DNA from: an uncultured Candidatus Saccharibacteria bacterium
GTDB lineage: Bacteria > Patescibacteriota > Minisyncoccia > Phycocordibacterales > DATDWN01
NCBI GenBank assembly: GCA_964426735.1
Contig: CAYRRP010000003.1
Coordinates: 13,378-77,377 of the forward strand
DNA: 64,000 bases
Direction: 5' to 3'
The notes below the pieces were generated by a model, which ran no database searches, was not told the DNA's origin, and saw only the letters and a program-made list of their open reading frames with translations. Position 1 is the first letter of the stretch, and every line of letters starts with the position of its first letter. The translations under genes were made by a program, and so were the position numbers. Below, piece by piece: positions 26,763 through 57,085 of this stretch.

Positions 26763-26960
26763 GAAAAGAGAACCATATTACAGGTTCTCCATTTTTTTAT
26801 CTCATATTTTTTATATCAGAATACAGACTATCGCCCTTCGCCAGCGCTTGCGCATCGGCGGCCGACCAGACAGGGTCGGCGACTGTGGTCTGCGTTCGCT
26901 TTCGCGACGCTCGCCCTACGTCGTTGACCGGACGTAGACGGTTGGGCTAAACTCTCTGGA

Positions 26961-27221
26961 CTAACGACTCTGACGAGTACGCATGGTCCACAGGGTCTTA
27001 CGTAAGGCTCTGCCCGTGAAGTCCCAAACTCGTTGAGGTTCGGAAGCAAACACGACCCAAAAAATCTCGTCACCGTCCGCATCGCGGCTGGTTAAACCCG
27101 ATTCTCTGGCAAGAGCCATAACGTCCTTCGCCTTTTCACCCCCTTCGACAACAACGACCTGATGGCCGTTGATTCCTTTATTTCTAGGGAAGGTTGCGAC
27201 TGGGCTATAGTCTGTATACAC
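26961..27221 (-). CDS. small GC-rich ORF P1 (86 aa, GTG start) with own promoter and SD
   Basis: Local GC much higher than flanks. Minus-sense upstream TTGACA-17-TAATAT then AAAGGAG 6 nt before GTG. Followed by ~170 nt GC-rich untranslated tail. Confidence 0.4.
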   Translation of the reverse strand: MYTDYSPVATFPRNKGINGHQVVVVEGGEKAKDVMALARESGLTSRDADGDEIFWVVFASEPQRVWDFTGRALRKTLWTMRTRQSR

Positions 27222-27275
27222 CTTGAACTCCTTTCTGTGATTAATATTAACATACTATATTTTTTTGTCAAGTAC
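27222..27275 (-). promoter_or_regulatory. sigma70-like promoter (TTGACA/TAATAT) plus SD AAAGGAG for P1
   Basis: Read on minus strand: GTACTTGACAAAAAAATATAGTATGTTAATATTAATCACAGAAAGGAGTTCAAG-GTG. Confidence 0.4.
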
Positions 27276-27315
27276 TTTTTTATACCACTATAAACCGCTA
27301 TACTGAGGGCTATAT

Positions 27316-29478
27316 ATGAACCCGCTTTCCCTCATCGAAAAAGAAATACGTGTACTCGATGCACACAGACGAGCTCTTCATAAGCTTGGCATACGTACCG
27401 TCGAAGATATGCTCTATCACTTCCCTGTGCGCTATGGCGACACGGCGGAAATCAAAAATATTCAAAGCCTCACTCCTGGCGAAGACGCAGTGGTGTTTGG
27501 AAGAATCTCAGGACTTAAAACAAGTAAAGCGTTTGTCAAAAAGACGCCGATGTCTGATGCTACACTTTCGGACGAAACAGGTCGTATCAAGATTGTATGG
27601 TTCAACCAACCATACATCGCAAAGATGCTCTCTGATGGGGCGATAGTGCGCGTCCAAGGAAAAGTAACGCTGCGAAAAAAAGATGAGAGTCTCTATTTTT
27701 CAAACCCGAAAATAGAGATTGCAAATAAAATACCGACAGGTGTCGGCTCAAGTCTTTTTGGTGCTGACGGAGAGGAACACAACCTCTACCCCGTATATCC
27801 CGAAAGCAAAGGAGTGACTTCAAACTGGATGTATCATGCAGTCGAGCGTATTTTTAAATCAGGCACCCTTGATCTGCTCCCTGACCCACTTCCGCAATAT
27901 CTCCTTGATACGTATCACCTCCCCGATCTTAAGACTGCGATGATTTGGATCCATGCTCCCAAAAAAGAGTCGGACGCGATAGCGGCGCGCAAGCGTTTTG
28001 CCTTTCAGGAAATATTTACGATCCACTTACGCAAAGAACAAGAAAAACTCACCTGGCAGAAAAACCAGGCGTTTGTGATAAACACCAACAAGAAAAAAGT
28101 TATGGAATTCATGAAAACATTTCCCTTTGAAGCAACTGACGCTCAGAAAAAAGCAATCGACACGGTACTTTCTGACTTTACTCGAGGCTTTCCGATGTCT
28201 CGCCTTCTCGAAGGAGATGTGGGTTCTGGGAAAACTGCAGTTGCAGCAGCGACTGTGTTTTCAGTCGTCACCTCTCGACCAAATGGAAAGGACTTCGGAA
28301 ATCTCCAGGTTGCCTACATGGCTCCGACTGAAATCCTTGCAAAGCAGCAGTTTGAAAACTTCATCGCTTTCTTTCGAGGCACCGGAATTCAAGTTGGTCT
28401 CATTACCGGAAGTGGTTGTAAAAAGTTTCCATCTAAAACCGATCCATCATCATCGACTTCAATTTCTAAAGCCCAGCTTTTGAAATGGATTAAGAATGGA
28501 GAGATACCTATCGTAGTCGGTACTCATGCGCTTGTCTACAAAAGTGTAGAGTTCAAACACCTTGCCTTTGCGGTGATCGACGAGCAACATCGCTTCGGAA
28601 CACTCCAGAGACAAAAGCTCACAACAAAAAATGATCTCGCACCCCACCTGCTTTCAATGACTGCAACTCCAATCCCTCGCACACTTTCCCTCACCCTCTA
28701 CGGTGATCTTGACCTTTCAATTCTTGATCAAATGCCAGTCGGACGAAAACCAATCATCAGCAAGATAGTGTTGCCACACGAGCGAACATCGACCTATGAA
28801 GAAATTAAAAAAGAACTTCGTGCAGGAAGACAACTTTATGTCATCTGTCCTCGTATCGAAGAAGTAGACCCGACCAAAGAAAATGCAGTGATAGCAAAGT
28901 CAGTGACTGAAGAAGCAAAACGTCTCAAAGCAGAAGTATTCCAGGATTGGAGTATTGGAATACTCCACAGCAAAATGACACCCGGCGATAAAGAAAAAGT
29001 GATGAGTGAATTTGCCGAACATAAAACAGATATTTTGGTTGCAACGTCGGTGGTGGAAGTGGGAGTTAATGTCCCAAATGCCACAATGATTATCATTGAA
29101 GGTGCAGAGCGTTTCGGACTTTCTCAACTTCATCAACTCCGTGGACGCGTGATCCGCTCAAACCACCAAGCATACTGTTATGTCTTTACTGAAAGCACCG
29201 GAGAAAAGACAAAAGAGCGTATGAAAGCGCTGGTTACCGCCAAAAATGGTTTCGAGCTCGCAGAGTTTGACCTCCAAGCACGTGGTGCAGGACAACTCTA
29301 CGGACAAAAACAATGGGGTGTTGGAGATTTGGCGATGGAAGCATTGCAAAATATTAAACTTGTGGAAGCGAGCCGTACTGAAGCACGAAAACTTGTGACT
29401 GATGACCCTGATTTAAAAAAATATCCCCTCCTCAAACAAATCATCGAGTCTGAAGTAGATAAAATACACTTTGAATAA
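27316..29478 (+). CDS. recG: ATP-dependent DNA helicase RecG
   Basis: N-terminal wedge domain, Walker A GDVGSGKT, DEQHRFG (DEQH box), helicase C motifs QLRGRVIR. Confidence 0.9.
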   Translation: MNPLSLIEKEIRVLDAHRRALHKLGIRTVEDMLYHFPVRYGDTAEIKNIQSLTPGEDAVVFGRISGLKTSKAFVKKTPMSDATLSDETGRIKIVWFNQPYIAKMLSDGAIVRVQGKVTLRKKDESLYFSNPKIEIANKIPTGVGSSLFGADGEEHNLYPVYPESKGVTSNWMYHAVERIFKSGTLDLLPDPLPQYLLDTYHLPDLKTAMIWIHAPKKESDAIAARKRFAFQEIFTIHLRKEQEKLTWQKNQAFVINTNKKKVMEFMKTFPFEATDAQKKAIDTVLSDFTRGFPMSRLLEGDVGSGKTAVAAATVFSVVTSRPNGKDFGNLQVAYMAPTEILAKQQFENFIAFFRGTGIQVGLITGSGCKKFPSKTDPSSSTSISKAQLLKWIKNGEIPIVVGTHALVYKSVEFKHLAFAVIDEQHRFGTLQRQKLTTKNDLAPHLLSMTATPIPRTLSLTLYGDLDLSILDQMPVGRKPIISKIVLPHERTSTYEEIKKELRAGRQLYVICPRIEEVDPTKENAVIAKSVTEEAKRLKAEVFQDWSIGILHSKMTPGDKEKVMSEFAEHKTDILVATSVVEVGVNVPNATMIIIEGAERFGLSQLHQLRGRVIRSNHQAYCYVFTESTGEKTKERMKALVTAKNGFELAEFDLQARGAGQLYGQKQWGVGDLAMEALQNIKLVEASRTEARKLVTDDPDLKKYPLLKQIIESEVDKIHFE

Positions 29479-29483
29479 ATAAG

Positions 29484-29516
29484 AAACCGCCGTGTCTGAA
29501 AAACTCGGCGGTTATA
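29484..29516 (+). terminator. intrinsic terminator AAACCGCCG-TGTCTGAAAAACT-CGGCGGTT
   Basis: GC stem right after the recG stop codon. Confidence 0.5.
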
Positions 29517-29551
29517 CAATCTAAAATCATTGATTGGTTGTTTAGTTCACA

Positions 29552-29896
29552 TTAGTTTACTGTAACTTTTTTAGCACCTTCGATAAAATTGAGTGCCTCA
29601 GCTATCATTTCCATGTCAAGCTCAAATCCAGGTATTTCACAATGAGCTTCGTTTAGATTCATAATGACTGTTTGCACTTCAGGTATAACTAACTCATCTG
29701 CATCTGGCAACAGAGATGCATCAATTTGAGAACGAAGTATTTTCGCATCTGCTGGTGTGATAACGGAATGCTTAAGTCCACTTTCAACCATATATCGTGC
29801 GTAAGGTTTAGACCAGACTACAAAATACTCACCTGTCGAGTTAGTAATCTTGGCAAAACGGCCACAAGATGAGACCTCTAATTTTGCTAATCCCAT
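29552..29896 (-). CDS. hypothetical protein (114 aa)
   Basis: ORF only. Confidence 0.35.
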   Translation of the reverse strand: MGLAKLEVSSCGRFAKITNSTGEYFVVWSKPYARYMVESGLKHSVITPADAKILRSQIDASLLPDADELVIPEVQTVIMNLNEAHCEIPGFELDMEMIAEALNFIEGAKKVTVN

Positions 29897-29926
29897 TTGA
29901 CATCTTCCTTTCCAAATTGAACACTA

Positions 29927-30817
29927 ATGTATTTTTTGAAAAAGCACAAGAGTATGATATACATATCATTCATGCATTTTAGAATTCTCAAAAAAATTGG
30001 ATTTGTTCTTTTAATTATCTTCGCACTTATCGGCGCAGGTTTTACAGGAATGTATTTTGCAATCAAATGGGGCTGGACAAATACTCGCGGAGCGATTGAT
30101 ATGCAACGTGATGCATTTCTTCAAAGCGGCAAAGCTCAGACTGCAAATGTTATCGGAGCTACTCCGGAAAAAAAATATTGGCAAACCACAGAAGAATGGT
30201 ACGTGTTGAAAAATGCACTCACGAAAGACAAAGCAGTCCTCTATAGAGCAGCGTCAGCGTCTGGTGTATCCCCTCGCCTTATCGCATCACAGCTTGTAGT
30301 AGAACAACTTCGCATGTTTAATTCAGATCGCGAATCATACAAAAAGTTTTTTTCACCACTAAAGATTCTTGGTAGCCAGACTCAATTCTCTTGGGGCGTT
30401 ATGGGTATCAAACGCGAGACAGCACTGGTGATAGAAAAAAATCTCAAAGACACCGCCTCTCCGTATTACCTCGGTGCACAATACGAACACCTCCTTGATT
30501 TCCATACAACAGATATAGAAAACGAACGATTTGCTTTTATGACAAATCAGCATGATCACTATGGAAGCTACCTCTACGCAGGATTGTACTTACGACAATT
30601 TATGCAGCAATGGAAATCTGCAGGTTTTGATATATCAAAACGAGTAGATATTTTAGCCACACTCTATAACATCGGGTTTAATGGATCAAAACCAAATGCG
30701 AACCCACAGTCAGGTGGCGCACAAATCACAATCGGCAACAGAACATATAGCTTTGGCTCTCTTGCTCAAGAGTTTTATGATTCAAATGAACTTTTGGATG
30801 AGTTTCCGAGAAACTAA
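29927..30817 (+). CDS. membrane-anchored hypothetical protein (296 aa)
   Basis: N-terminal TM helix (IGFVLLIIFALIGAGFTGMYFAI) and large C-terminal domain of unknown function. Confidence 0.35.
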   Translation: MYFLKKHKSMIYISFMHFRILKKIGFVLLIIFALIGAGFTGMYFAIKWGWTNTRGAIDMQRDAFLQSGKAQTANVIGATPEKKYWQTTEEWYVLKNALTKDKAVLYRAASASGVSPRLIASQLVVEQLRMFNSDRESYKKFFSPLKILGSQTQFSWGVMGIKRETALVIEKNLKDTASPYYLGAQYEHLLDFHTTDIENERFAFMTNQHDHYGSYLYAGLYLRQFMQQWKSAGFDISKRVDILATLYNIGFNGSKPNANPQSGGAQITIGNRTYSFGSLAQEFYDSNELLDEFPRN

Positions 30818-30835
30818 TTTAGTTTTGTGGTCACT

Positions 30836-30890
30836 CGAAAAATTCCTCGACCTGGACTCGAACCAGGGACCAATTTATTATGAAAATCTC
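30836..30890 (-). ncRNA. tRNA-like 3' fragment fused to partial copy (E) of the tRNA-linked element
   Basis: Minus-sense GATTTTCATAATAAATTGGTCCCTGGTTCGAGTCCAGGTCGAGGAATTTTTCGAGTGACCAC. Has a T-arm CCTGG-TTCGAGT-CCAGG, then GTCGAGG and GAATTTTTCGAGTGAC matching the element hairpin-3 sequence of copy B. Confidence 0.3.
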
Positions 30891-30894
30891 AGAG

Positions 30895-30966
30895 TCCACC
30901 CACCACGACTCGAACGTGGGACCCCCGAGGTATAAGCTCGATGCTCTAACCAACTGAGCTATGGGT
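30895..30966 (-). tRNA. tRNA-Ile (anticodon TAT)
   Basis: Reverse complement CCACCCATAGCTCAGTTGGTTAGAGCATCGAGCTTATACCTCGGGGGTCCCACGTTCGAGTCGTGGTGGGTGGA: acceptor CCACCCA/TGGGTGG, D-arm GCTC/GAGC, anticodon loop CTTATAC (UAU), T-arm CCACG-TTCGAGT-CGTGG. Confidence 0.65.
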
Positions 30967-31019
30967 GGACTCTATTATTTTCAAAACAAAATCTATATAA
31001 GCTCGAGTCACGAGTCAAA

Positions 31020-31117
31020 ATCTACTGACTTTGCTTGCAACCCCGCCTCGCACCGTCGTGCTCCGGCCTTGCGAGCCGATAACATCGACTCTCACTCTAC
31101 CAACTGAGCTACACGCG
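31020..31117 (-). ncRNA. tRNA-like 5' half (CCGCGTG-TA-GCTCAGTTGGTAGAGT...) with aberrant 3' portion; possible pseudo-tRNA or intron/insert-containing tRNA
   Basis: Canonical acceptor and D-arm at 31089-31117 (minus). No matching T-arm or acceptor 3' strand found within 100 nt. Confidence 0.25.
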
Positions 31118-31156
31118 GATATGTTATAATTAAGACCAACTTAAAGTAACATAAAT

Positions 31157-31411
31157 ATGAACAAAAATAAACTTTGGTTTAAAGCAAAAATGTACGGATG
31201 GGGTTGGCAACCGACTTCATGGGAAGGATGGGCTGTGCTCGCACTCTATATTACAGCAATATGGATTAATGCTCGAAACATTGATTTCTATGCACATTCT
31301 GCAAGCGACACTCTTATCAATGGAGTGATCCCTTTGGTTATCAATACCATTTATTTACTGATTATTTGTTACTGTCGAGGTGAAAGACCTCGATGGAGAT
31401 GGGGTAAATGA
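31157..31411 (+). CDS. small membrane protein (84 aa)
   Basis: Two hydrophobic segments. Trp-rich N-terminus. Confidence 0.3.
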   Translation: MNKNKLWFKAKMYGWGWQPTSWEGWAVLALYITAIWINARNIDFYAHSASDTLINGVIPLVINTIYLLIICYCRGERPRWRWGK

Positions 31412-31417
31412 GATTAA

Positions 31418-31458
31418 TACAAAAGCCTAGCGGACAAAGCTACATCCGCTAGGCTTTT
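31418..31458. terminator. strong bidirectional terminator AAAGCCTAGCGGA-CAAAGCTACA-TCCGCTAGGCTTTTTTT
   Basis: 13-bp stem with flanking A/T runs. Confidence 0.6.
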
Positions 31459-31459
31459 T

Positions 31460-31642
31460 TTAGTTAATACCATCGACCGACACCTCGTCAATCGATTGAA
31501 ATTGTTTACCACAACTACGGCAAACAAAGACACCATCCCGAAAAAAGACTTCGCCGGCACAGTCCTCGCCCCGCCGGTATGGCTCAGCACAGAAACCAAT
31601 CCTTTCCATGCAATACCCAACGAGAGAGCCCTCGACAATGGT
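31460..31642 (-). CDS. small zinc-ribbon protein P2 (61 aa from MTIVEG) with own promoter and SD
   Basis: Cys pairs GYCMERIGFC and VCRSCGK. AGGAAGGAGG 7 nt upstream of ATG. Elevated GC. Confidence 0.45.
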   Translation of the reverse strand, partial: TIVEGSLVGYCMERIGFCAEPYRRGEDCAGEVFFRDGVFVCRSCGKQFQSIDEVSVDGIN

Positions 31643-31645
31643 CAT

Positions 31646-31720
31646 TAACGATCCTCCTTCCTTTACCAAGATATCAATACGTTCCCTAAATTGTCAACTA
31701 AACACTACACCTACAGGTGT
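31646..31720 (-). promoter_or_regulatory. hairpin, TTGACA/TGATAT promoter and SD for P2
   Basis: Minus-sense AACACTACACCTGTAGGTGTAGTGTT hairpin, then TTGACAATTTAGGGAACGTATTGATATCTTGGTAAAGGAAGGAGGATCGTTA-ATG. Confidence 0.4.
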
Positions 31721-31765
31721 AGTGTTAGAACTTTTACAAGCAACATTGGTTAAATTTTGGAAGTT

Positions 31766-33706
31766 TTACACTTGGTGCTCAATGTCTAATTTCTTTTTAA
31801 CCGTAACCCCATGAGCAACCAACAGCGTTTCGAATTCATCACGTTCCATTGTCTCTGTTTCCATCAGACGTTTAGCGATCGCATCAAGAAGTTTTTTATT
31901 TGCTTCGATTGTTGTTTTTGCTTTCTCCTCAGCCTCTTTCATAATCTTTGAAATTTCTGCATCCACTTCCGCTGCTACTTTTTCAGAATATCCTTCAGAC
32001 TCTACTCCCCGACCAAATAACACTTTTCCTCCACTTCCCTCCAGTGCTATTGGCCCAAGCTTATCTGACATACCGTACTTAGTCACCATATCTCGCGCGA
32101 GTGCAGTCGATACCTGGAGATCATTTGATGGTCCTGTAGTCAAATCATCAAACATCATTTTCTCTGTCACATACCCACCGAGCGAGACTGCTATGTCATC
32201 GAGAAATTCTTTTCGAGACTGGAGTTTTTTATCTTCAATAGGAAGCTTGAGTACATATCCTGCTGCACGTCCTCGAGAAATAATCGAAATCTTATGCACC
32301 GGATCAGCATATGAAAGAAGTGATGCAAGTACCGCATGCCCTGCTTCATGATAAGCTGTGATTTCTTTTTCTTTCTTTGAAAGAATATGACTCTTTCGCT
32401 CAGGCCCAAGCATCACCTTTTCGATAGAGCGAATCAGGTCGTACTGAGAAATCTTGGTACGATTTTCTCGTGCTGCCAAGATCGCTCCTTCATTCATGAG
32501 TGAGTATAAGTCTGCACCAGAAAATCCTGGTGTACGCTCTGCTATTACTTTTATATTTACATCTTCTGCAAACGGTTTCTTTTTTGCATGAACATTAAGA
32601 ATTGCTTCTCGATCATCTCGGTCAGGAAGATCAAGTGTCACTCGACGATCAAAACGTCCCGGTCGAAGGAGTGCCGGATCAAGTACATCTGGTCTGTTGG
32701 TCGCTGCCATGACGATCACTTTTTCATTTGGCTCAAAACCATCCATCTCTACGAGGATTTGGTTTAAGGTCTGCTCTCGCTCATCATTGCCCCCACCCGC
32801 ACCGACTCCTCGCACGCGTCCTACCGCATCGATCTCATCAACGAAAATAATTGCCGGAGAATTTTTCTTTGCCATCATAAAGAGATCTCGAACACGAGAT
32901 GCTCCCACACCCACGAACATTTCTACGAATTCAGATCCAGAGATTGAAAAGAATGCAACACCTGCCTCCCCTGCTACCGCACGAGCAAGGAGTGTCTTTC
33001 CGGTACCTGGTGCTCCCATCAGAAGGATTCCTTTTGGAATACGTGCACCGATTTCAAGAAACTTCTTTGGATTTTTTAGAAAGTCCACAATTTCTGAAAG
33101 CTCTTCCTTTGCTTCTTTTGCACCAGCCACGTCTTTAAAAGTTACTCGCTGAGAGCTGTCGTTTGGATCGATCATACGAGCTTTTGACTGTCCGAAAGTA
33201 AATGCTTGTGCTCCTGCACCTTTCACCTGTCGAGTCATGTACCAGATGAAAAGAAGGACGAAAATAATCGGGACAAGAAGTGGAGCGAGATTCATCACCC
33301 AGTATCCAAACCCTGATTCATTTTTGATATCTACTTTTACTTTTCCAAGCTCCGCCGGAGTAGTACCGTAGTTTGAAAGTGTATCAGTGAGTGCAGTACC
33401 CTCTTCTTTTTTAGTAAACTTCTTATCACCATTTGCATACACCATATCGAGTGAGTCACCCTTTACCACGATCTCAGTCACCTGCCCCGCCTTAATATCA
33501 AGTGCAAGCTGTGAAAGCGGAATTTCTGTCGTTGTACTTTTTTTCCCACTTAAAAAAGAATACACACCTGAAAGAAGGAGGAAAATCAAAAGTATAGTAG
33601 CAACATAATTAAAAACAGATACTTCACCAGGACCTTTTTGCTCAGGCACTTTCTTTTGCATATTCTTTTTATCTTTGTTTTTTGGTGGTTTAGTGTTTGG
33701 ATTCAT
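31766..33706 (-). CDS. ftsH: ATP-dependent zinc metalloprotease FtsH
   Basis: Two N-terminal TMs, AAA Walker [18 protein letters not shown] zinc site. Confidence 0.9.
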
Positions 33707-34245: not shown

Positions 34246-34702
34246 ACTTGCTCAGAATATTTCTGATCAAATTGGGGGTGCCAGGTTTTGACATAGTCTG
34301 CATCCGTTCGCGCACTACAGAGTTCCAGTCAACTCTTTAAACATCTGGAAACTATACGTGTAAACAATACTGTTGCACGAGCAAAAGCTTCTGTTTCTCC
34401 ATATTTTGGAGTTAACAACTTTGCTTTCTCTTACGCACGAGCTTAATTTAAGTTTCGTCCCTAGGAGGGGGTGATACATCCGATATCTCATACGATGTCT
34501 CATTCATATAACTGTGAGGTCCGGTCACTTCCCTGTTTCAGGTTGTGACCTAAAAAATGAAACTCGCCTTTTTCTTGTTTTGTTTGTTTTATAGAGAAAA
34601 AGTCTAAACGTTAAAACATTCTATGTAGTGTAGACCCGTTCGTATTCTCTCTATGCACGTGGCTTCGATGTCACCACTTCCACAAATTACAAAAAAAACT
34701 GC
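34246..34702 (+). ncRNA. ssrA: candidate tmRNA (ssrA), 3' end uncertain
   Basis: Immediately downstream of smpB. 5' end GGGGGUGCCAGGUUUUGACAUAG matches the tmRNA acceptor-plus-GGxUUCGAC consensus. Possible 3' strand CACUUCC+A gives G3-U70. T-loop-like UUCGAUG at 34669-34675. Possible tag ORF ...GVNNFAFSYARA-stop around 34405-34440. Confidence 0.45.
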
Positions 34703-34733: not shown

Positions 34734-34740
34734 GAGCAAA

Positions 34741-35074: not shown

Positions 35075-35128
35075 TATCTATTGACAAAAGGTATTAGTGC
35101 TATATAATTTTACAAGGAAAGGATAATC
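35075..35128 (+). promoter_or_regulatory. consensus sigma70 promoter (TTGACA-16-TATAAT) and SD GGAAAGGA for P3
   Basis: CTATTGACAAAAGGTATTAGTGCTATATAATTTTACAAGGAAAGGATAATCC-ATG. Confidence 0.5.
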
Positions 35129-35129
35129 C

Positions 35130-35612
35130 ATGACTCAGAATTGGAACGACGCCGCTGCACGATATCAAGCTGCGAATCGTCAAAAGCTACGAGAACAACT
35201 GGTGCAGGCAACTCCCGTTGCATTACCGGCACCTAAGCCCGATAACTCCCTGGAAATCGCACAGGCTGCAACAGATCTACATACATTTATGAGATCTGAA
35301 GAAGGAAGATCTGCTCTCGCACTCCTACAAGAGAGCCGCCGGCATTTCATTTTTGGTGAAGATAGTGATGGTGGAGGTTATGGTACTGTCTACTATCTTG
35401 ATGGAACAGGTCTCCATCGCTCCATCGAAGCGATGGGTATGTGGGTTGCCTACAGCAAGGAGGTGGCAAAACCAAAAATAAGCAGTATTACTGCCCACGA
35501 GGCCGTGACTGCTGCTGTTGAGAATGGGCGGAAAAAACCCAGTGAAATCATCTCCTGGCTCCGCGCCGAACTCGACAAGATCGCCGCAGCCGCACCCCAA
35601 CCTGAACCCTAA
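35130..35612 (+). CDS. hypothetical protein P3 (160 aa), GC-rich, Ala/Pro-rich termini
   Basis: Elevated GC. Canonical promoter, SD and GC-rich terminator, unlike neighbouring housekeeping genes. Confidence 0.45.
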   Translation: MTQNWNDAAARYQAANRQKLREQLVQATPVALPAPKPDNSLEIAQAATDLHTFMRSEEGRSALALLQESRRHFIFGEDSDGGGYGTVYYLDGTGLHRSIEAMGMWVAYSKEVAKPKISSITAHEAVTAAVENGRKKPSEIISWLRAELDKIAAAAPQPEP

Positions 35613-35616
35613 CCGT

Positions 35617-35655
35617 TCCCCCCGCCGAAAGCCGCCGCGCTCTCGGCGGCTTTCT
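35617..35655 (+). terminator. GC-rich intrinsic terminator GAAAGCCGCCG-CGCTCT-CGGCGGCTTTC + TTTATT
   Basis: 11-bp GC stem followed by a T-run. Confidence 0.6.
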
Positions 35656-41217: not shown

Positions 41218-41345
41218 GAGTAAGGTCGCGTATAAATTTTGGGAAATGTTCGTAGACGTACTTGTCGTACGGCGAAGAATATTTTCCAAAATTTAGACGA
41301 TGAGATTGCTCAATTTTGGGACTTTTAGTAGGGTCGCGGTATACT
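41218..41345 (-). repeat. terminator-module repeat family F, copy F1 (AGGTCGCGTATAAA - long hairpin with GACGTAC..GTACG core - TTTAGACGATGAGATTGC...GGTCGCGGTATAC)
   Basis: Shares flanks and palindromic core with copies at 44465, 57118 and 53230. Confidence 0.4.
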
Positions 41346-43761: not shown

Positions 43762-43806
43762 AGCTCAGGAAAATATAAAAAAGATCCTTCATTTTGTCCC
43801 ATACTA
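43762..43806. terminator. long hairpin AGATCCTTCATTTTGTCCCATAC-TAG-TATGGGGAACGAAGGATCT
   Basis: About 20-bp imperfect stem downstream of P4. Confidence 0.5.
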
Positions 43807-43841
43807 GTATGGGGAACGAAGGATCTTCTGATAGATCAACA

Positions 43842-44315
43842 CTAAACGATGCCCGTGAACAGACGCCAACCTGGAGCATAGAACATTGTAATATGACTTG
43901 GTATTTCTACCTTCCAACACTGCAGAATGTCGTCCCATGTGACTTCTGACCACCAATTATCTGCACAAAAGATATTGATGCCATACGTAGTTAAGGAACC
44001 AAGTTCCCCACAAGGCTGACGATTGATCAATTCCTTGATAGCACCGCACACTTCGGAAGGAGCGAGGTGTTTTATACCACCAGACACCTTGAATGCTTCT
44101 TGCATTTCATCAATCATACAGTGCTCGACTACGTTAAACTGATTGAGTTTAATCCGTGTACCGTTACGCAACGCCGTAGCCGTGCCATGCCGTTGTCTAA
44201 AATAATCCCCAACCCTCAACCCTAATCGGGTCTGATAATAGGTTTTAGGATCGTAATTCCCGGAGACGACAATTTCAATATCATCCCCTTTTTCCACTTT
44301 CCTGCTCATACTCAT
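43842..44315 (-). CDS. hypothetical protein P4 (157 aa) inserted between secY and adk
   Basis: Breaks the otherwise universal secY-adk adjacency. Elevated GC. Own TTGACA-16-TATAAT promoter and AAGGGG SD-like element. Confidence 0.4.
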   Translation of the reverse strand: MSMSRKVEKGDDIEIVVSGNYDPKTYYQTRLGLRVGDYFRQRHGTATALRNGTRIKLNQFNVVEHCMIDEMQEAFKVSGGIKHLAPSEVCGAIKELINRQPCGELGSLTTYGINIFCADNWWSEVTWDDILQCWKVEIPSHITMFYAPGWRLFTGIV

Positions 44316-44329
44316 AACTACCCCTTTTC

Positions 44330-44365
44330 AAACAGTTTCCACCTAGGATTATATAGTTATATTAT
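44330..44365 (-). promoter_or_regulatory. sigma70-like promoter for P4
   Basis: Minus-sense CTATTGACAGGTAATAATATAACTATATAATCC. Confidence 0.45.
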
Positions 44366-44389
44366 TACCTGTCAATAGTACCGATTACA

Positions 44390-44425
44390 CAAAATCCCCT
44401 TTTTTGAGGGGATTTTGTGTTTTGA
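44390..44425. terminator. terminator AAAATCCCC-TTTTTTGA-GGGGATTTTGTG
   Basis: Perfect 9-bp stem with flanking T/A runs. Confidence 0.6.
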
Positions 44426-44464
44426 AAACTAGATATTATGTGGTTACGAACTTTCACAATTTCT

Positions 44465-44576
44465 CCGAGGTCGCGGATAAAATATGGAAAGGGACCGGAG
44501 ACGTACTTACTGGTACGATGAGGACCATTTCCAGATTTTAGCCGATGAGATCGGTGAAATTTGGAAGTTCTGTTGT
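44465..44576 (-). repeat. terminator-module repeat family F, copy F2, directly after the secY stop
   Basis: GAGGTCGCGGATAAAATATGGAAAGGGACC-GGAGACGTACTTACTGGTACGATG-AGGACCATTTCCAGATTTTAGCCGATGAGATCGGTGAAATTTGGAAG. Confidence 0.45.
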
Positions 44577-45848
44577 TTAATACTCCCTAATAGAAACTTG
44601 AGCGTCGATTTTTTTGATAAGATCAATAACTACGGATACCGCAATCAAAAGCGCAGTACCTCCTACTGAAACCGCTGTAATACCAGTGAGTCCTCTGATT
44701 GCCAACGGAAGAATTGCAATCACGCCGAGGAACAATGCTCCGATAAGAGTCAGTCGAGTAAGAGTTTTCGCAATATGTTCAGAGGTTGGAGTACCTGGAC
44801 GTACACCCGGAATAAACGCTCCGTTTTTCTGAAGATTTTTTGAAATCTGATCAGGATCAAAGGTTACCGCTGTATAGAAGTATGTGAAGATAAATACAAG
44901 GAAGAAATATGCAATCGCATACACCCATGAGTTTGAGATAAATGTATTCAATGCAGTTGCAACATTTTTAATTGCAGGATAATCAACATTTGCAAGAAAC
45001 TGAGATATGATTTGTGGGAATAGCAATATTGCTGATCCAAAGATAATCGGCATAACACCAGCTTGATTCATACGAAGTGGAAGATATGTTGATGTACCAC
45101 CATATACTTTCATACCACGTACTTGTTTTGCATACGTGACCGGAATCGGACGCTCTGCTTCGGTGACCACTACCACAAGAACAACTACAACAATAGCGAT
45201 AATTGCAAAAAGTGCATAGAGTGGAAGTTGTACAGGATCAAATACATATGCAAGTTGAGAAATAGCTGTTGGAAGTTGTGACACGATACCTGCAAAAATG
45301 ATAAGTGATACACCATTTCCAATACCGTATTCAGTGATCAATTCACCAATCCACATCAGAAGCATCGATCCAGCAGTAATAACCGCGAGATTAACCATCA
45401 AATCAAACGGTGCCATTGACGCAATAACATTCTGAGATTCAAGAAGTTTAATCAAGCTAAATCCCTGAATCAGTGCAAAAGGTATTGCAAGCATACGTCC
45501 ATATTGGGCAAACTTTCGACGACCCGCATCCCCTTCTTCTTGATACATCTCTTTCAATCGTGAAGACATTACGGTAAGCAACTGCATAATGATAGATCCT
45601 GTAATATATGGACCCACACCAAGCATCACGATAGACAACTGTGAAAGACCACCTCCAGAGAACAAGTTGAGGAGTCCGAGAAATTCACTATTTGCAAACA
45701 AAGAAGTAAGTGCTGATTGATCTACACCAGGGATAGGGATAATAGCAAGAAAACGAAACACAACAAGTGCGCCAAGTGTGAACAAAATTCGTGTACGAAG
45801 AGCTTTGTCTTGTAATACGAGTCCGAATTTATAGAAAAAGTTTTTCAT
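44577..45848 (-). CDS. secY: preprotein translocase subunit SecY
   Basis: Ten-TM profile, conserved LGVGPYITGSIIMQLL and plug/hinge regions. Follows rplO. Confidence 0.9.
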   Translation of the reverse strand: MKNFFYKFGLVLQDKALRTRILFTLGALVVFRFLAIIPIPGVDQSALTSLFANSEFLGLLNLFSGGGLSQLSIVMLGVGPYITGSIIMQLLTVMSSRLKEMYQEEGDAGRRKFAQYGRMLAIPFALIQGFSLIKLLESQNVIASMAPFDLMVNLAVITAGSMLLMWIGELITEYGIGNGVSLIIFAGIVSQLPTAISQLAYVFDPVQLPLYALFAIIAIVVVVLVVVVTEAERPIPVTYAKQVRGMKVYGGTSTYLPLRMNQAGVMPIIFGSAILLFPQIISQFLANVDYPAIKNVATALNTFISNSWVYAIAYFFLVFIFTYFYTAVTFDPDQISKNLQKNGAFIPGVRPGTPTSEHIAKTLTRLTLIGALFLGVIAILPLAIRGLTGITAVSVGGTALLIAVSVVIDLIKKIDAQVSIREY

Positions 45849-50143: not shown

Positions 50144-50149
50144 ATAATT

Positions 50150-50419: not shown

Positions 50420-50425
50420 ACTATT

Positions 50426-50601
50426 TATTTTACGTTAATTGCAGTCAAAATTCGTGCAATATCCTTTCGGATTGCATACCCTTCTTTTATATTTTTAACC
50501 TTACTACCAGCAACAGAAAAACGGAAATTTCGAAGTGCCACTCGTTTTTCACCGAGGAGAGCTTTCAATTCTTTTTCTGTTTTATTTTTAAAATCTTTCA
50601 T
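50426..50601 (-). CDS. rpmC: 50S ribosomal protein L29 (58 aa; below ORF-track length cutoff)
   Basis: Minus-strand translation MKDFKNKTEKELKALLGEKRVALRNFRFSVAGSKVKNIKEGYAIRKDIARILTAINVK between rplP and rpsQ. Confidence 0.7.
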
Positions 50602-50611
50602 AAACTCTGTA

Positions 50612-51028
50612 TTATCGTGCTACTACTTTAGATTTAATAGGAAGTTTTGTTCCTGCTTTTCGAAGTGCTTCTTTTGCAATCGCTTCAGTTACGCCATCGA
50701 TTTCGAAGATGATTCGTCCTGGAAGCACTGGTGCTACATATGCAAACAAATCTCCTTTTCCTTTACCGAGCTTTACTTCGGCTGGTTTTCGAGTGATTGG
50801 CATATCAGGGAAAATTCGAATCCATACCTTTCCTGTCTTACCCATAGCTCGTGAAAGCACTTTTCGTGCAGCTTCAATCTGATTTGATCGAATACGTGCA
50901 TCAGTTGTTGCTTTAAGTCCAAATGAACCAAACGCAAGTGTTGCGCCACGTGTCGCCGTACCAATACGAGACGTATTTCGTCTCATGGTATGCCATTTTC
51001 GATATTTTACTTTTTTAGGTAGCAACAT
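50612..51028 (-). CDS. rplP: 50S ribosomal protein L16
   Basis: MLLPKKVKYRKWH..RG...G.FGLKA...RI...QIEAAR. Confidence 0.9.
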   Translation of the reverse strand: MLLPKKVKYRKWHTMRRNTSRIGTATRGATLAFGSFGLKATTDARIRSNQIEAARKVLSRAMGKTGKVWIRIFPDMPITRKPAEVKLGKGKGDLFAYVAPVLPGRIIFEIDGVTEAIAKEALRKAGTKLPIKSKVVAR

Positions 51029-51038
51029 ATACGTTTAG

Positions 51039-51695
51039 TTATTTAGCAAAGATTTCTCCCTTATATATCCACACTTTGATACCAATCGCTCCGTATGGAA
51101 GACGTGCAGGATATGCTGCATAGTCTACATCAGCTCGAAGAGTTTGAAGTGGAATTCGACCTTTTTTCATCTTTTCCTGTCGTGCCATAGAGGCCCCTCC
51201 AAGACGACCTGAAAGTTCGATTTTAACTCCAAGCACATCTCGGTTAGCCATTACCTTTTCGATAATCTGCTTCCCTACTCGTCGGAAAGGCATACGTTTC
51301 TCAAGACCTTCTGCAATCATGTGTGCCACGATTGTTGCATTTGTTTCTGGAGATTTTACTTCTTTGATGTCGATTTTTACTTCACCACCTGATACAAGGT
51401 TTTTCTTAGCCATGAATGCCAAAATCTCATCTCGAAGTTTTGTAGCACCTTCACCTGATCGTCCGATGATAGCACCTGGTCGTGAAGTTTCAATCATAAT
51501 TCGAAGTGCTTTTTCACTTCGTTCCATTTGAATGTCAGCCACATACTGACCTCGCATTTTCTTTTCAAGAAATTCGCGAATAAGCACATCACTCTTCAAG
51601 AACTCCTTGAATTTACTTTTCACGCCAAACCATCGAGATTTCCAATCTCTGATGATTCCAAGTCTATGTGAATATGGGTGTACTGTGTGTGACAT
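51039..51695 (-). CDS. rpsC: 30S ribosomal protein S3
   Basis: KH domain and C-terminal domain: GIIRDWKSRWF...GVKIELSGRLGGA. Confidence 0.9.
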   Translation of the reverse strand: MSHTVHPYSHRLGIIRDWKSRWFGVKSKFKEFLKSDVLIREFLEKKMRGQYVADIQMERSEKALRIMIETSRPGAIIGRSGEGATKLRDEILAFMAKKNLVSGGEVKIDIKEVKSPETNATIVAHMIAEGLEKRMPFRRVGKQIIEKVMANRDVLGVKIELSGRLGGASMARQEKMKKGRIPLQTLRADVDYAAYPARLPYGAIGIKVWIYKGEIFAK

Positions 51696-51696
51696 A

Positions 51697-52137
51697 TTAT
51701 TCGTTTGTTTTTACAGTTTTTGTTGTTTTCTTTTTTGTAACCTTCTTTTCTGCAACAACTTCTGCCTTCTCTTCCATAACAACCTTAGTCTTCTTTGCTT
51801 TCGGAAGAACTTCCTCAAGTGTAATAGAAATCATACTTGTTCGCTTTCGGATAGGGTGAGCTGAACCACGCGCTGCAGGCATTCGTCGGTAAAGAGTCTT
51901 ACCACTGTTTACTTCCACAGTTTTTACTACCAAGTTTTCAGTAGGCATTGATTGTGCTTTTGCGTTTGCAAGAGCCGATTCGATGAGTTTCTTAATAGGG
52001 TCAGATGCTCGTTTTTCTGTAAACTGCATTGAAAGAATAGCATCTGCTACTTTTTTACCACGTACGAGATCAGCAACTACACGAACTTTTCGTGGAGACT
52101 GTCGAAGATTTGAAAGTGTAGCGGATGCTTTTGCCAT
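51697..52137 (-). CDS. rplV: 50S ribosomal protein L22
   Basis: MAKASATLSNLRQSPRKVRVVADLVRGKKVADAILSMQF. Lys-rich C-terminal extension. Confidence 0.9.
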   Translation of the reverse strand: MAKASATLSNLRQSPRKVRVVADLVRGKKVADAILSMQFTEKRASDPIKKLIESALANAKAQSMPTENLVVKTVEVNSGKTLYRRMPAARGSAHPIRKRTSMISITLEEVLPKAKKTKVVMEEKAEVVAEKKVTKKKTTKTVKTNE

Positions 52138-52146
52138 AATATTAAA

Positions 52147-52491
52147 TTATTTTTTCTTAGCGTCAGGAGCTGCTTTAGATGCTTTTGCAGCAGCAATTTC
52201 AGACTCTTTCTTTTTAATTTCGAGCTCTTTCTGCATCTTACCTCCGTGTTTAAGGAATTTCTTTGTAGGAGAAAATTCGCCCAATCGGTGCCCTACCATA
52301 TCTTCAGTAACCAATACTTCAATATGAGTTTTACCGTTGTGTACGCCAAAGTTGAAGCCTACCATTTCAGGAGAGATAACACATGCTCGTGACCAAGTCT
52401 TAATAACCCCAGTTTCAATAGGTTTTTTACCCTCAATCTTTTTGAGAACTCGTGGGTCTACATATGGTCCTTTGTGTGATGATCGTGTCAT
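52147..52491 (-). CDS. rpsS: 30S ribosomal protein S19
   Basis: [18 protein letters not shown]...[18 protein letters not shown]. Basic C-terminal extension. Confidence 0.9.
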
Positions 52492-52814
52492 GAATTGATT
52501 AAAAAAATACTCTTTTTTGTAAGAGGTAGTAAAACCTTAAACAAAAACTAGATGTAAGAGAAAAACTCTCACGTGCGCTCTATACTATACAAAATGAGGC
52601 AATATGTCAAACGTTTAGTAAGCAGTCACAAGTCAATAGTCTGCAGTATAAAAACTGAAATCCTAAAAAGGAGAAAACGGTCAATAATATGACAATTCTA
52701 CGTAATACTGCAGGAATATAACAAAATCCGCCCCCTTCGAGGCAGATTTAGGTGTAATTTGAAGTAAAAATAAGAGCGACCTTTCCCCTCTGGGAACTGC
52801 CGCTCTCATCGACA

Positions 52815-53141
52815 CTAGCGATTAGTTCTGGTATTAATACCCAATTCTTCGTACATTGAAGCCAAGCAATCCATATTTCTTCCATAATCTGGGTCGCCGC
52901 AGATTTCTGGATGTTGATACGAATAATGCTTTTCGTACTGTTTATCGAGGATGTTGAGAGCTTCTTCAAGCTTACCACCCTCTTGAGCAAAAACACAAAG
53001 ACTGCCGATTGCAACTTGGCCTTTAAAGCAAAATTTGTCGACGAGTATCTCCACTCTCCCGATACATTCCGCAGGAATCTTGCCTCGTAAAAACGCCTGC
53101 ATTCTGACATCTAGATTTGAAAGCGTTGTTATTGTGTCCAT
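52815..53141 (-). CDS. hypothetical protein P5 (108 aa) inserted between rplB and rpsS
   Basis: Interrupts conserved rplB-rpsS adjacency. Elevated GC. Upstream terminator hairpin, TTGACA-type promoter and AGGAGG 4 nt before ATG. Confidence 0.4.
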   Translation of the reverse strand: MDTITTLSNLDVRMQAFLRGKIPAECIGRVEILVDKFCFKGQVAIGSLCVFAQEGGKLEEALNILDKQYEKHYSYQHPEICGDPDYGRNMDCLASMYEELGINTRTNR

Positions 53142-53145
53142 TGGA

Positions 53146-53215
53146 CCTCCTTTTACACCTTATAATACTGATTCAAAATGTCAAACAAAAAACACCCTTT
53201 CGGGTACTTTTTGTT
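53146..53215 (-). promoter_or_regulatory. terminator hairpin, promoter and SD for P5
   Basis: Minus-sense AAAAAGTACCCGAAAGGGTGTTTTTTGTTTGACATTTTGAATCAGTATTATAAGGTGTAAAAGGAGGTCCA-ATG. Confidence 0.45.
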
Positions 53216-53229
53216 AAAACCAATTAAAT

Positions 53230-53290
53230 TGCTTCAGATGCTAGGCGGACGAGGGATTTGGGTCGAGACGTACTGAACGTACGGCGAGAA
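53230..53290 (-). repeat. F-family hairpin core (GGGATTTGGGTCGAGACGTACTGAACGTACGGCGAGAATCAAATCC) downstream of rplB
   Basis: Same GACGTAC...GTACGGCG palindromic core as F1 and F2, in a 7-bp outer stem. Confidence 0.35.
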
Positions 53291-53337
53291 TCAAATCCTG
53301 AAGTCCAACAACGCAGATGGAGTAATTTTATTGTGTT

Positions 53338-54180
53338 TTACTTTCGCTTGCCTACTTTACGGCGGGAAACTATGTGCTTATTAGAATATTTCTTAGGAGT
53401 TCGAGTCTTCTGTCCCTTACCTGTCGGTCGTCCGTATACAGACACTGCTCGACGTCGTCCTCGGCCCTGTCGGCCTTCTCCACCTCCGTATGGGTGGTCT
53501 ACTGGGTTCTGAGCTGTACCTCGCACTGTTGGTCGGATACCGAGCCATCGTGAACGTCCTGCTTTACCGAGGTTTACAAGTCGATTTTCATCGTTTGCTA
53601 CTTCACCTACTGTAGCGTATGCAGTATCTTTTACTTTTCGCACTTCAGATGAAGGCATTTTGAGATCTACATATCCTGCGTCTTTAGCGATAAGTTCAAT
53701 GTAACTTCCTCCAGATCGAGCAAGCTTTGCTCCTCCTTGTGGTTTTACTTCTACGTTATAGATAAATGTACCAATAGTAATATCTTTAAGTGGTAGTCGG
53801 TTTCCAGTCTTTACTTCTGCGTTTGGAGCAGTGATGTATGTATCCCCCACTTTTGCACCCTTAGGAAGAAGAATGTATCGCTTCTCACCATCTTTGTATA
53901 CTGCAAGACCGATAAATCCTGATCGGTTTGGATCGTACTCTACAGTTTTTACTGTGTATGGAATATTGATTTTGTTGTACACGAAATCAATTTCTCGGAA
54001 GAGTCGCTTGTGTCCTGCTCCCTTGTGACGGGTAGTAATCACACCCTGGTTGTTTCGCCCTACTGATCGTTTGAAACCTCGTGTGAGTGACTTTACAGGC
54101 TTTGCGGTAGTCAAAACTGCACCGTAGTTGATCGATGTCATGTTTCGACGTGATGGGGTTGTTGGTTGGTATCGTTTCAT
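53338..54180 (-). CDS. rplB: 50S ribosomal protein L2
   Basis: KRYQPTTPSRR...GRNN.G.IT.RH.GGGHKR. C-terminal GGGEG..GRG. Confidence 0.9.
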   Translation of the reverse strand: MKRYQPTTPSRRNMTSINYGAVLTTAKPVKSLTRGFKRSVGRNNQGVITTRHKGAGHKRLFREIDFVYNKINIPYTVKTVEYDPNRSGFIGLAVYKDGEKRYILLPKGAKVGDTYITAPNAEVKTGNRLPLKDITIGTFIYNVEVKPQGGAKLARSGGSYIELIAKDAGYVDLKMPSSEVRKVKDTAYATVGEVANDENRLVNLGKAGRSRWLGIRPTVRGTAQNPVDHPYGGGEGRQGRGRRRAVSVYGRPTGKGQKTRTPKKYSNKHIVSRRKVGKRK

Positions 54181-54190
54181 ATTATTGATA

Positions 54191-54472
54191 TTACATTACC
54201 TCAATAGTTTGACCTTTCTTAAGGTATACGTACGCCTTTTTGATACCTTTTTTAAAACCTACTTTTCCTCGTACAAATACTTTTTTCTGAGGATTTGTTA
54301 CGGTTGTAACTTTTACTGGAGATACTTTGTAGATTTCTTTTACTGCTTTGATCACATCTGTCTTTGTTGCGTGTTTTGGAATCTCAAATGCGTACACTGA
54401 AGATTCTGACTTAAGCGCAGCTTTTTCTGTGATACGTGGTCGCAATAATACTGTTTTAAGATCTGCTTTCAT
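54191..54472 (-). CDS. rplW: 50S ribosomal protein L23
   Basis: LLRPRITEKA...YAFEIPKHATKTDVIKAVKEIYKV. Confidence 0.9.
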   Translation of the reverse strand: MKADLKTVLLRPRITEKAALKSESSVYAFEIPKHATKTDVIKAVKEIYKVSPVKVTTVTNPQKKVFVRGKVGFKKGIKKAYVYLKKGQTIEVM

Positions 54473-54477
54473 GATAG

Positions 54478-55140
54478 TTATGCAAGTTTAGAAGTAACTG
54501 TTGAAAGAGACTCGTTTGGATTCTCGATAACAACATACTTATATTTCATCAAATCGACAGGGTTGATGTTTCGGATTTCATCCACTTCAACATTGCTGAA
54601 GTTACCAAAGCTTTTCTTTGTAGTTACACTGTCTTTTGAAAGTGCGATCCATGCTGAGTTTTTCTTTTTTGAAAGGATATCAGTAAAACCTGTGATTTTT
54701 GAGAAAGATGAAAGAGTTCCTTTTGCGTCTTTTGCTTTTGGAGCAGAGAAATTCAAAGAATCTACGAAAAGGATGTGTCCTTTCTTAAATTTAGCTGAAA
54801 GGATAGTATACAAAGCTTTTGCTTTCATTTTCTTATTTACCTTTCGAGTATAGTCTTTTTCATTTCGTGGGCCATGAGTAACACCTCCACCTACCCAGAT
54901 AGGAGATCGAGTTGATCCATGTCGTGCACGCCCTGTTCCCTTTTGTTTCCAAGGTTTCTTTCCACCTCCAGATACTTCACCTCGGTTTTTAGTGTGAGCA
55001 ACAGGTGTTCGAGCACTTGATTCCATTGATACAACAACTTGGTGAACCAAGTCAGCATTCCATTTAAGACCAAACACGCTCTCTGGGAGAGTTATTGTTC
55101 CTGCTGTTTTACCTGTTTGTGTGTAAATATTTGCTTCCAT
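54478..55140 (-). CDS. rplD: 50S ribosomal protein L4
   Basis: GGGKKPWKQKGTGRARHGSTRSPIWVGGGVTHGP. Confidence 0.9.
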   Translation of the reverse strand: MEANIYTQTGKTAGTITLPESVFGLKWNADLVHQVVVSMESSARTPVAHTKNRGEVSGGGKKPWKQKGTGRARHGSTRSPIWVGGGVTHGPRNEKDYTRKVNKKMKAKALYTILSAKFKKGHILFVDSLNFSAPKAKDAKGTLSSFSKITGFTDILSKKKNSAWIALSKDSVTTKKSFGNFSNVEVDEIRNINPVDLMKYKYVVIENPNESLSTVTSKLA

Positions 55141-55230
55141 GATTTTTAAATTTAGTCATTAAAGTCTATCAAGTCTTTCAAGTCCATAAAGTCGGGTGCA
55201 TTTGGCATCTAACTTGATGGACTTTTGACT
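55141..55230 (-). repeat. repeat family R, copy R6 (rplC-rplD spacer)
   Basis: TTTAGTCATTAAAGTCTATCAAGTCTTTCAAGTCCATAAAGTCGGG...GACTTTTGACTTTATGAACCTTTGACTTC. Confidence 0.4.
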
Positions 55231-55845
55231 TTATGAACCTTTGACTTCTACTAGTGTTCCTCGGCGTCCTGCTACAGCACCTCGAATAAAGATTTCTCCT
55301 GCTTCTACGTCAATACCTGCGATAGTAAGACCACCTGTAGTGATACGATCACCTCCAGTTCGTCCTGCCATTCGTTTTCCTTTTGCTACACGTCCTCCGT
55401 CTCGTCCTCCACCTCCAAGAGATCCTGGCTCTCGCTCTGAGTGTTTCTGTCCGTGTGATCGAGGTCCTCCGTGGAAACCATGTCGCTTAACACCTCCCTG
55501 GAAACCTTTTCCTTTTGAGATAGAAGATACGGTTACACCGTCTCCTGCTGAAAATGTTGAGATATCGATAATATCCCCTACTTTGTATTCACCTCCTTCA
55601 ATTCGGAACTCTTTGATGTGAGCAAATGAACCAAGTTCTTTTACATGACCTTTTACTGCCTTTGAGATGTTCTTTGGGTTTCGAGAACCAAAACCAACCT
55701 GTACAGCAGTATAACCATCTTTTGAAAGATTCTTAACCTGAGTGATTACATTAGGACTTGTTTTGATAACAGTCACCGGATGCACTACGCCCGCGTCGTC
55801 GAAGATTTGGGTCATATTCTGTTTTGTTCCGAGGATGAATTTCAT
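55231..55845 (-). CDS. rplC: 50S ribosomal protein L3
   Basis: Likely start MKFILGTKQNMTQIFDD. FSAGDGVTVSSISKGKGFQGGVKRHGF. ORF-track start 55920 is an extension. Confidence 0.9.
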   Translation of the reverse strand: MKFILGTKQNMTQIFDDAGVVHPVTVIKTSPNVITQVKNLSKDGYTAVQVGFGSRNPKNISKAVKGHVKELGSFAHIKEFRIEGGEYKVGDIIDISTFSAGDGVTVSSISKGKGFQGGVKRHGFHGGPRSHGQKHSEREPGSLGGGGRDGGRVAKGKRMAGRTGGDRITTGGLTIAGIDVEAGEIFIRGAVAGRRGTLVEVKGS

Positions 55846-56041
55846 ATGATTATTATATTGATTTTGAAGACATTTTTCGGACAGTAATGAGAAAAGGTTT
55901 TTCTCAACATTGCCCATCACTAGTCCTCATAAAAAATAGCCTAAATGGCGATTTGGCAATACTAGCAGATAATGATTTTTATTTCAAGGGGTATAGATAC
56001 AAAAAGAGGTTTGCAAAAGCAAACCTCTCCGAAGCAGACTT

Positions 56042-56311
56042 TCACTCTGTAATAGGACAATTTTGCCCCGTCAGGTACCCACCTCCAAGCAACCATCCGG
56101 TAGGACCAAGCTCCACTATACCAGTACAGACGCACCCTTGGTTTTGACACGTACCTACATGAGTACCGACGTCAAGTCGAAACTCATTAGGAATTACTAC
56201 CCAGGCACCAATTTGGTGCCCAAGTCGAGCAGAAGCATCTTCTACTCTTTTACGACGTCTTTCATCGTCTGGATTTAAAACCATTTTTTCCAAACAGCCT
56301 CCTATACTCAT
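56042..56311 (-). CDS. small Cys-rich hypothetical protein P6 (80-89 aa) inserted between rpsJ and rplC
   Basis: Breaks the rpsJ-rplC adjacency. GC-rich. AGGAGG lies inside the first 6 codons, 13 nt before an internal ATG (MVLNPDD). Motif CQNQGCVCTG. Flanked by terminator hairpins. Confidence 0.35.
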   Translation of the reverse strand: MSIGGCLEKMVLNPDDERRRKRVEDASARLGHQIGAWVVIPNEFRLDVGTHVGTCQNQGCVCTGIVELGPTGWLLGGGYLTGQNCPITE

Positions 56312-56372
56312 ATAAGCACATATTTATATATTTGAAAACAAAAACCACCCTTTCGGGTAGTTTTTGTGTATA

Positions 56373-56756
56373 TTAGATGATTTTTACATCAATATTAACA
56401 CCAGATGGTAGAGAGAGATTTGTGAGTGATTCCATAATCTTTGGGGTCGGATTAAGGATATCAATCAATCGCTTATGAGTTCTCATTTCAAACTGCTCTC
56501 GAGCGTTTTTATACACAAACGAAGCTCGGTTTACTGTGTATTTCTTGATCTCAGTTGGAAGTGGGATTGGACCCAAAACCTTTGCATCGTATCGAAGAGC
56601 AGTATCCATGATCTGTCGTACTGAGATATCGAGTACTTTGTACTCATATGCTCGTACTCGGATTCGCAATTTAGAAATTGCATCCTCTTTTGCAGCTTTT
56701 TTAGGAGCCTTTTTTGTTGTTGTTTCTTTCGTTGCCATTACGGAGTAGCTTACCAA
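56373..56756 (-). CDS. rpsJ: 30S ribosomal protein S10
   Basis: RIRVRAYEYKVLD...PIPLPT..KKYTVNRASFVYKNAREQFEMRTHKRLIDI. Confidence 0.9.
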   Translation of the reverse strand: MVSYSVMATKETTTKKAPKKAAKEDAISKLRIRVRAYEYKVLDISVRQIMDTALRYDAKVLGPIPLPTEIKKYTVNRASFVYKNAREQFEMRTHKRLIDILNPTPKIMESLTNLSLPSGVNIDVKII

Positions 56757-56774
56757 ACAATTAAACTATTGGCA

Positions 56775-56815
56775 AGTAAGCGAAAACCCGCACGAAGACA
56801 AAGTCTTCGTGCGGG
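56775..56815. terminator. terminator CACCCGCACGAAGAC-TTTG-TCTTCGTGCGGGTTTTCG
   Basis: 15-bp stem between P7 and rpsJ. Confidence 0.5.
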
Positions 56816-56820
56816 TGACT

Positions 56821-57010
56821 TTAAAGAGGTGTTTTGAGTCTTTCTGTGTACTCCTTAAGGGCAGCATCCGCAACCCCAGCAGCAACACTCGCAACATCTT
56901 CAGGGTACACATACCGCTGTCCTAAGGGACGACTCAAGTTACTGTTGCTCAACACAGCACACAGAACCCGAAGCCAAATCTCTGACCCTTCTTGAGTATG
57001 AATCGACATA
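56821..57010 (-). CDS. small hypothetical protein P7 (63 aa from MSIHTQEG) between tuf and rpsJ
   Basis: Own TTGACA-16-TATATT promoter and AGGAG 8 nt before ATG. Elevated GC. Confidence 0.4.
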
Positions 57011-57014
57011 TTTT

Positions 57015-57085
57015 TTCTCCTCTTTTGAATATACAATATTTGCATTTTATGTCAACAAAAAACCACCCGAAGATGGTTTTTTGTT
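57015..57085 (-). promoter_or_regulatory. terminator hairpin, promoter and SD for P7
   Basis: Minus-sense CAAAAAACCATCTTCGGGTGGTTTTTTGTTGACATAAAATGCAAATATTGTATATTCAAAAGAGGAGAAAAAAT-ATG. Confidence 0.45.

Follow-up and report, generated by a model that had tools for sequence, protein, structure and literature searches.

What are the small ORFs, each led by a strong Shine-Dalgarno (SD) site, that are scattered through a 64,000-nt stretch of DNA (the window) of a CPR bacterium (Paceibacterota/Parcubacteria, 40% GC), and how did some of them come to lie between ribosomal-protein genes? A first-pass annotation had read seven of them (P1–P7, present at roughly the positions it gave; Table 1) as autonomous, probably horizontally acquired or mobile modules with one identical expression architecture. 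Our comparative analysis makes it quite likely that the loci are real, independent small genes, and that the cargo between the ribosomal-protein genes consists of moron-like flexible islets exchanged by recombination.

Table 1. Features of the window; all promoters, SD sites and terminators were assigned by match to consensus.
Feature	Position	Strand	ORF or setting	5' signals	3' end
P1 unit	26765–27271	−	26961–27221, 86 aa, GTG start	-35 TTGACA 27271–27266, -10, SD AAAGGAG	~140-nt structured 3'UTR, terminator 26790–26767
P2 unit	31417–31728	−	31460–31645, 61 aa, Cys-rich, zinc-ribbon-like	upstream hairpin, -35 TTGACA 31697–31692, -10 TATCTT, SD AAGGAAGGAGG	terminator ~31459–31417
ssrA	34274–34685		P3 lies downstream
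P3 unit	35081–35654	+	35130–35612, 160 aa	TTGACA-16-TATAAT, SD AAGGAAAGGA	terminator 35627–35654
P4 unit	43775–44420	−	43842–44315, 157 aa, between secY and adk	hairpin ~44388–44420, TTGACA-16-TATAAT 44375–44348, SD AAAGGGGT	terminator ~43830–43775, long stem
rpsS promoter	52582–52610	−	right border of rplB–rpsS slot	TTGACA-17-TAGTAT
P5 unit	52724–53214	−	52815–53141, 108 aa, between rplB and rpsS	rplB terminator hairpin 53214–53183, TTGACA 53184–53179, SD AAAGGAGGT	terminator ~52806–52770, second orphan hairpin 52749–52724
rplC promoter	55959–55987	−	right border of rpsJ–rplC slot	TTGAAA-17-TAGTAT, then long leader
P6 unit	56003–56367	−	56042–56284, 80 aa, between rpsJ and rplC	rpsJ terminator hairpin 56367–56336, weak promoter, SD AGGAGG 56303–56298	terminator 56030–56003
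P7 unit	56786–57085	−	56821–57009, 62 aa, between tuf and rpsJ	tuf-side terminator hairpin 57085–57058, TTGACA-16-TATATT 57055–57028, SD GAGGAG	terminator 56816–56786
MITE/REP-like imperfect palindrome, ~125 nt	57111–57237	−	directly 3' of tuf stop codon
MITE-like copy, variant	~53235–53330		after rplB
MITE-like copy	44452–44577		after secY
MITE-like copy	41223–41332
MITE-like copy, divergent	~10900–11020

The claimed contrast in SD strength between these ORFs and the housekeeping genes holds. An SD-like site lies 4–13 nt upstream of the start in all seven, with a pairing energy with CACCUCCUU of −5.5 to −12.1 kcal/mol, whereas the mean for the 68 other genes is −0.34, with no more than two of them reaching −5.5 (Fisher p = 1.8e-8). 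Random 18-mers average −2.0, so that SD-like sequence is depleted upstream of the core genes. Many of the latter carry a -10 box 5–8 nt ahead of the ATG (in 16 of the 68 it ends 4–11 nt upstream of the start, most often at 6 nt), which suggests leaderless mRNAs. The same contrast between SD-led and SD-less genes is seen in other genomes that have relatives of P1, P3 or P5. As the 16S rRNA gene lies outside the window, and a survey found the anti-SD motif often undetectable in one Parcubacteria subgroup (PMC9297842), we infer that the SD sites act in this organism only from their conservation in P1 and P3 orthologues.

Loose promoter-like sites occur at chance level (37 against 39.9 expected; 30 against 36.7), and the 12/12, 11/12 and most 10/12 matches precede P4, P7, P3, P2 and P1, the remaining top matches being upstream of tmRNA, rpsS and hydrolase genes. 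Terminator-like sites are about twice as frequent as in shuffled sequence (23 versus 12.6; 33 versus 15.6), with the longest stems 3' of P7, P6, P5, P3 and P1; for P2 and P4 a terminator was recognised by eye. Each cassette has a leader of 20–35 nt that contains a canonical SD, and it ends in an intrinsic terminator of its own. The promoters of P1–P4 and P7 are of consensus sigma-70 type, and those of P5 (TTGACA present, a good -10 missing at 16–18 nt) and P6 (a weak TTTTCA/-10 in place of TTGACA) are weaker. The upstream hairpin, read as part of each cassette, turned out to belong to the gene before it, as that gene's terminator, or to be a MITE-like palindrome, and it is also found at empty sites. 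Given these deviations, the architecture is shared rather than identical. Judged by their signals, the modules are nonetheless autonomous as proposed, that is, insulated transcription units, and they appear to be monocistronic genes for predicted small cytoplasmic proteins, which would be transcribed and translated from terminator-to-promoter spacers.

The cassettes are indeed GC-richer (0.42–0.52 versus 0.396 ± 0.032 for the other genes, Mann-Whitney p = 4.7e-7), and GC3 differs as well (p = 2e-4). This does not mark recent import, since P1 and P3 orthologues retain the raised GC in genomes of 0.35–0.49 GC; it is a property of these genes. P1 has 23 homologues (54–83% identity) in which indels are in frame and changes fall at third positions, which shows that P1 is coding. 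Its transcript has a fold z-score of −6.7, and its 5' and 3' parts close in a helix that shows compensatory changes; by these alignments P1 represents a conserved gene family with conserved predicted signals and a structured mRNA. The six P3 homologues (47–74%) keep the smpB–tmRNA–P3 order together with promoter, SD and terminator, a synteny that contradicts a recent acquisition of P3 and, on the grounds for refutation that the annotation itself had named, tells against its reading of this gene. The class is mixed in age, P1 and P3 being old, conserved genes in the same style of expression and P5–P7 fast-turnover slot cargo.

Four cassettes lie inside the S10/spc/str gene order, as described. 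The gaps that hold them measure 498 nt (tuf–rpsJ), 452 nt (rpsJ–rplC), 846 nt (rplB–rpsS) and 857 nt (secY–adk) in the window and 14–245 nt in closer relatives (L003, L005, L007), the secY–adk gap being 26–230 nt in most relatives; the empty sites that the annotation had proposed to look for exist in relatives. In ten contigs of sister species (species-level relatives rather than strains), with an identical S10 protein and ribosomal-protein gene DNA 89–96% identical, the first three junctions are either empty or occupied by divergent or unrelated SD-led ORFs, arranged in head-to-tail stacks that start behind a conserved terminator hairpin and stop ahead of the promoter of the following gene; in L105 and L112 the cassette is reduced to a 3' remnant. 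These three junctions act as slots, and secY–adk probably does so too. With signals of its own on every cassette and with different or no cargo in the sisters' gaps, one of the best-conserved gene clusters of bacteria has become a place of frequent gene turnover in this organism. To call the cluster a universally conserved operon is an overstatement: in this lineage S10/spc/str is already divided among several transcription units, and at rplB–rpsS, where a terminator meets a promoter, most Paceibacterota have 0.7–9.7 kb.

The clearest trace of exchange concerns P6. Its start, formerly placed at 56311 (89 aa, with both AGGAGG and TTGACA, of which only the former is present), is most likely the ATG at 56284 behind AGGAGG, giving the 80 aa of its homologues. 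Between the window and L102 the P6 cassette is 99.1% identical inside flanks of 88–89% (7 mismatches in 751 nt, 56504–55754; the two flanks have 26 mismatches in 237 nt and 62 in 516 nt), and this stretch, which extends into rpsJ and rplC, is a recombination tract, clear in this one genome pair. Homologues of P6 (63–64%) occupy rpsJ–rplC in L107, L108 and L114, and distant ones tuf–rpsJ in L106 and L111, so that one family uses two slots (hhalign probability 93.8%, E = 1.8e-7); conserved motifs persist at 28–64% identity. At tuf–rpsJ itself, the P7 reading frame had been misplaced and is corrected in Table 1; a 38%-identical homologue (67 aa) sits at the same junction in L107, other sister species have other cargo or none, and MITE variant, cargo and rpsJ promoter variant are combined as mosaics. 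At rplB–rpsS, P5 (56 homologous cluster representatives; AF2 model a five-helix bundle, pLDDT 91.7) has a homologue in L103 with the same 5' and 3' modules, whereas L105 and L107 keep the P5 frame around a different ORF (116 aa). In L103 the P5 homologue is followed by a 3' fragment of rplB, which simple flank-anchored exchange does not predict. MITE-like palindromes, which gave no match in Rfam, vary as well: L106 has an additional copy after rplB, absent from L105, L107 and L109, and L001 has one at rplF–rplR.

In this reading a slot is bordered on its left by the upstream gene's terminator hairpin (A-tract, GC stem with GAAA/TTCG loop, T-tract) and on its right by the promoter of the downstream ribosomal-protein gene; the rpsS promoter is conserved in L001, L105–L107 and L109, and that of rplC in L002 and all sister loci. 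It holds 0, 1 or 2 cassettes head-to-tail, each closed by its own hairpin and T-tract, and because the terminator and promoter of the two neighbours stay in place, gaining or losing a cassette would be nearly neutral for ribosomal gene expression. Cargo may be swapped between sister species via homologous recombination for which the flanking genes, highly conserved as they are, serve as anchors, with natural transformation as a plausible route (type IV pilus genes are present in the window), and deletion or illegitimate recombination at terminator hairpins might provide further input. Horizontal movement is favoured for the slots by cargo that differs among sisters with identical S10, by the P6 tract and by the two-slot family; conserved P1 and P3 do not conform, and neither mobility genes nor target duplications nor a tie to phages were found.

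Vertical inheritance with differential loss, in which the small genes would be ancient, lineage-specific members of the ribosomal cluster, and sister species would have lost different ones with no transfer or mobility, is unlikely as the whole explanation. With sister contigs only 89–96% identical, and at the level of species, loss could account for part of the variation; P3 synteny with its conserved signals, diverged P6 and P7 homologues at unchanged junctions, and the remnants in L105 and L112, which show deletion, are all in its favor. On the other hand, loss alone requires an ancestor with many cassettes in every slot and is at odds with the near-identical P6 tract inside diverged flanks, unrelated ORFs in the same frame, the P6 family at tuf–rpsJ in some loci and rpsJ–rplC elsewhere, and the tuf–rpsJ mosaics.

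We give slightly less credit to site-specific, hairpin-targeted cassettes (integron-like, or non-autonomous elements of the IS200/IS605/PATE type), each docking by a 3' recombination hairpin after a terminator hairpin through a recombinase supplied in trans. Cassette borders that always directly follow a hairpin and T-tract, and head-to-tail stacks whose members each end in such a hairpin, would fit this model, as would the MAEKSW cassette with one left border behind two different hairpins (L113 versus L114), both end modules retained by the L103 P5 homologue, the mobile MITE-like palindromes adjoining slots and an L103 rplB fragment that could be an integration scar. In contrast, no integrase or transposase was detected among the tested window ORFs or the fetched loci, target duplication was not seen, the hairpins, intrinsic terminators of a generic kind, lack a common core such as GTTRRRY, the left one is retained at empty sites, and a tract reaching into flanking genes fits homologous exchange.

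A search for homologues, as the annotation had suggested, found relatives of P1, P3, P5, P6 and P7, so that by sequence comparison at least five of the ORFs encode real proteins; all seven are unrelated to each other, as stated. P2, whose start was moved to the ATG at 31645, has only zinc-finger matches below threshold in Pfam and no homologues in our searches, and its coding status is therefore no more than probable; P4 is an ORFan (itself alone among 5.8e9 clusters) with a 157-codon frame and a full set of signals. That the loci are instead small RNAs, or leaders or attenuators of ribosomal operons with chance frames, is very improbable: the strongly structured, covarying P1 transcript, the shortness of P2, P6 and P7 and the absence of a family match for any of the seven are outweighed by protein-level conservation of P1, the P6 motifs, families for P3, P5 and P7, the confident P5 model and an SD at the correct distance in all homologues. 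Equally improbable is delivery by viruses, as morons or prophage remnants, for despite the lambdoid-like layout (promoter, gene and terminator of atypical composition between conserved genes) and the position of P3 beside ssrA, a classical phage integration site, there is no PHROG family match, searches of IMG/VR found no relatives of the P1 family, P6 or P7 and only an 18-aa zinc-ribbon stretch for P2, the window and loci have no phage genes, and several relatives have conserved P3 together with ssrA.

Among known systems, SD-poor genomes (Bacteroidia; leaderless-rich Actinobacteria and Deinococcus) likewise have mostly genes without SD, a minority with a strong one and depletion of SD-like sequence 5' of core genes; here, the genes with an SD are small accessory ones of higher GC that have consensus -35/-10 boxes, in a lineage reported often to lack CCUCC in the 16S 3' tail (PMC9297842). 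Integron gene cassettes resemble the slots as arrays of small ORFs, mostly of unknown function, with one hairpin-forming element each, stacked head-to-tail at a fixed docking point and differing in content between close relatives. They differ in having intI and attI, attC cores in place of ordinary intrinsic terminators, and a common Pc rather than a promoter and SD per cassette, and the evidence here favours exchange through homologous recombination of flanking sequence. Flexible genomic islets, or integration hotspots, share with the slots one core-gene pair bracketing different accessory genes and exchange by conserved-flank recombination, for which mobility genes are unneeded; the present ones are very small (0.2–0.9 kb, single small ORFs), lie inside a cluster, S10/spc/str, with one of the best-conserved bacterial gene orders, and carry cargo with a uniform expression style that contrasts with the core genome. 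Phage morons, in the concept of Hendrix and Juhala, are extra genes with their own promoter and terminator between conserved phage genes. The cassettes lie instead in the ribosomal-protein cluster of a cellular chromosome, with no phage link found, can stack several units and also differ from host genes in initiation mode (SD versus none). Like morons, they are self-contained promoter-gene-terminator units inserted between genes adjacent in relatives, with a composition unlike their surroundings and cargo unrelated from case to case, leaving the expression of their neighbours intact.

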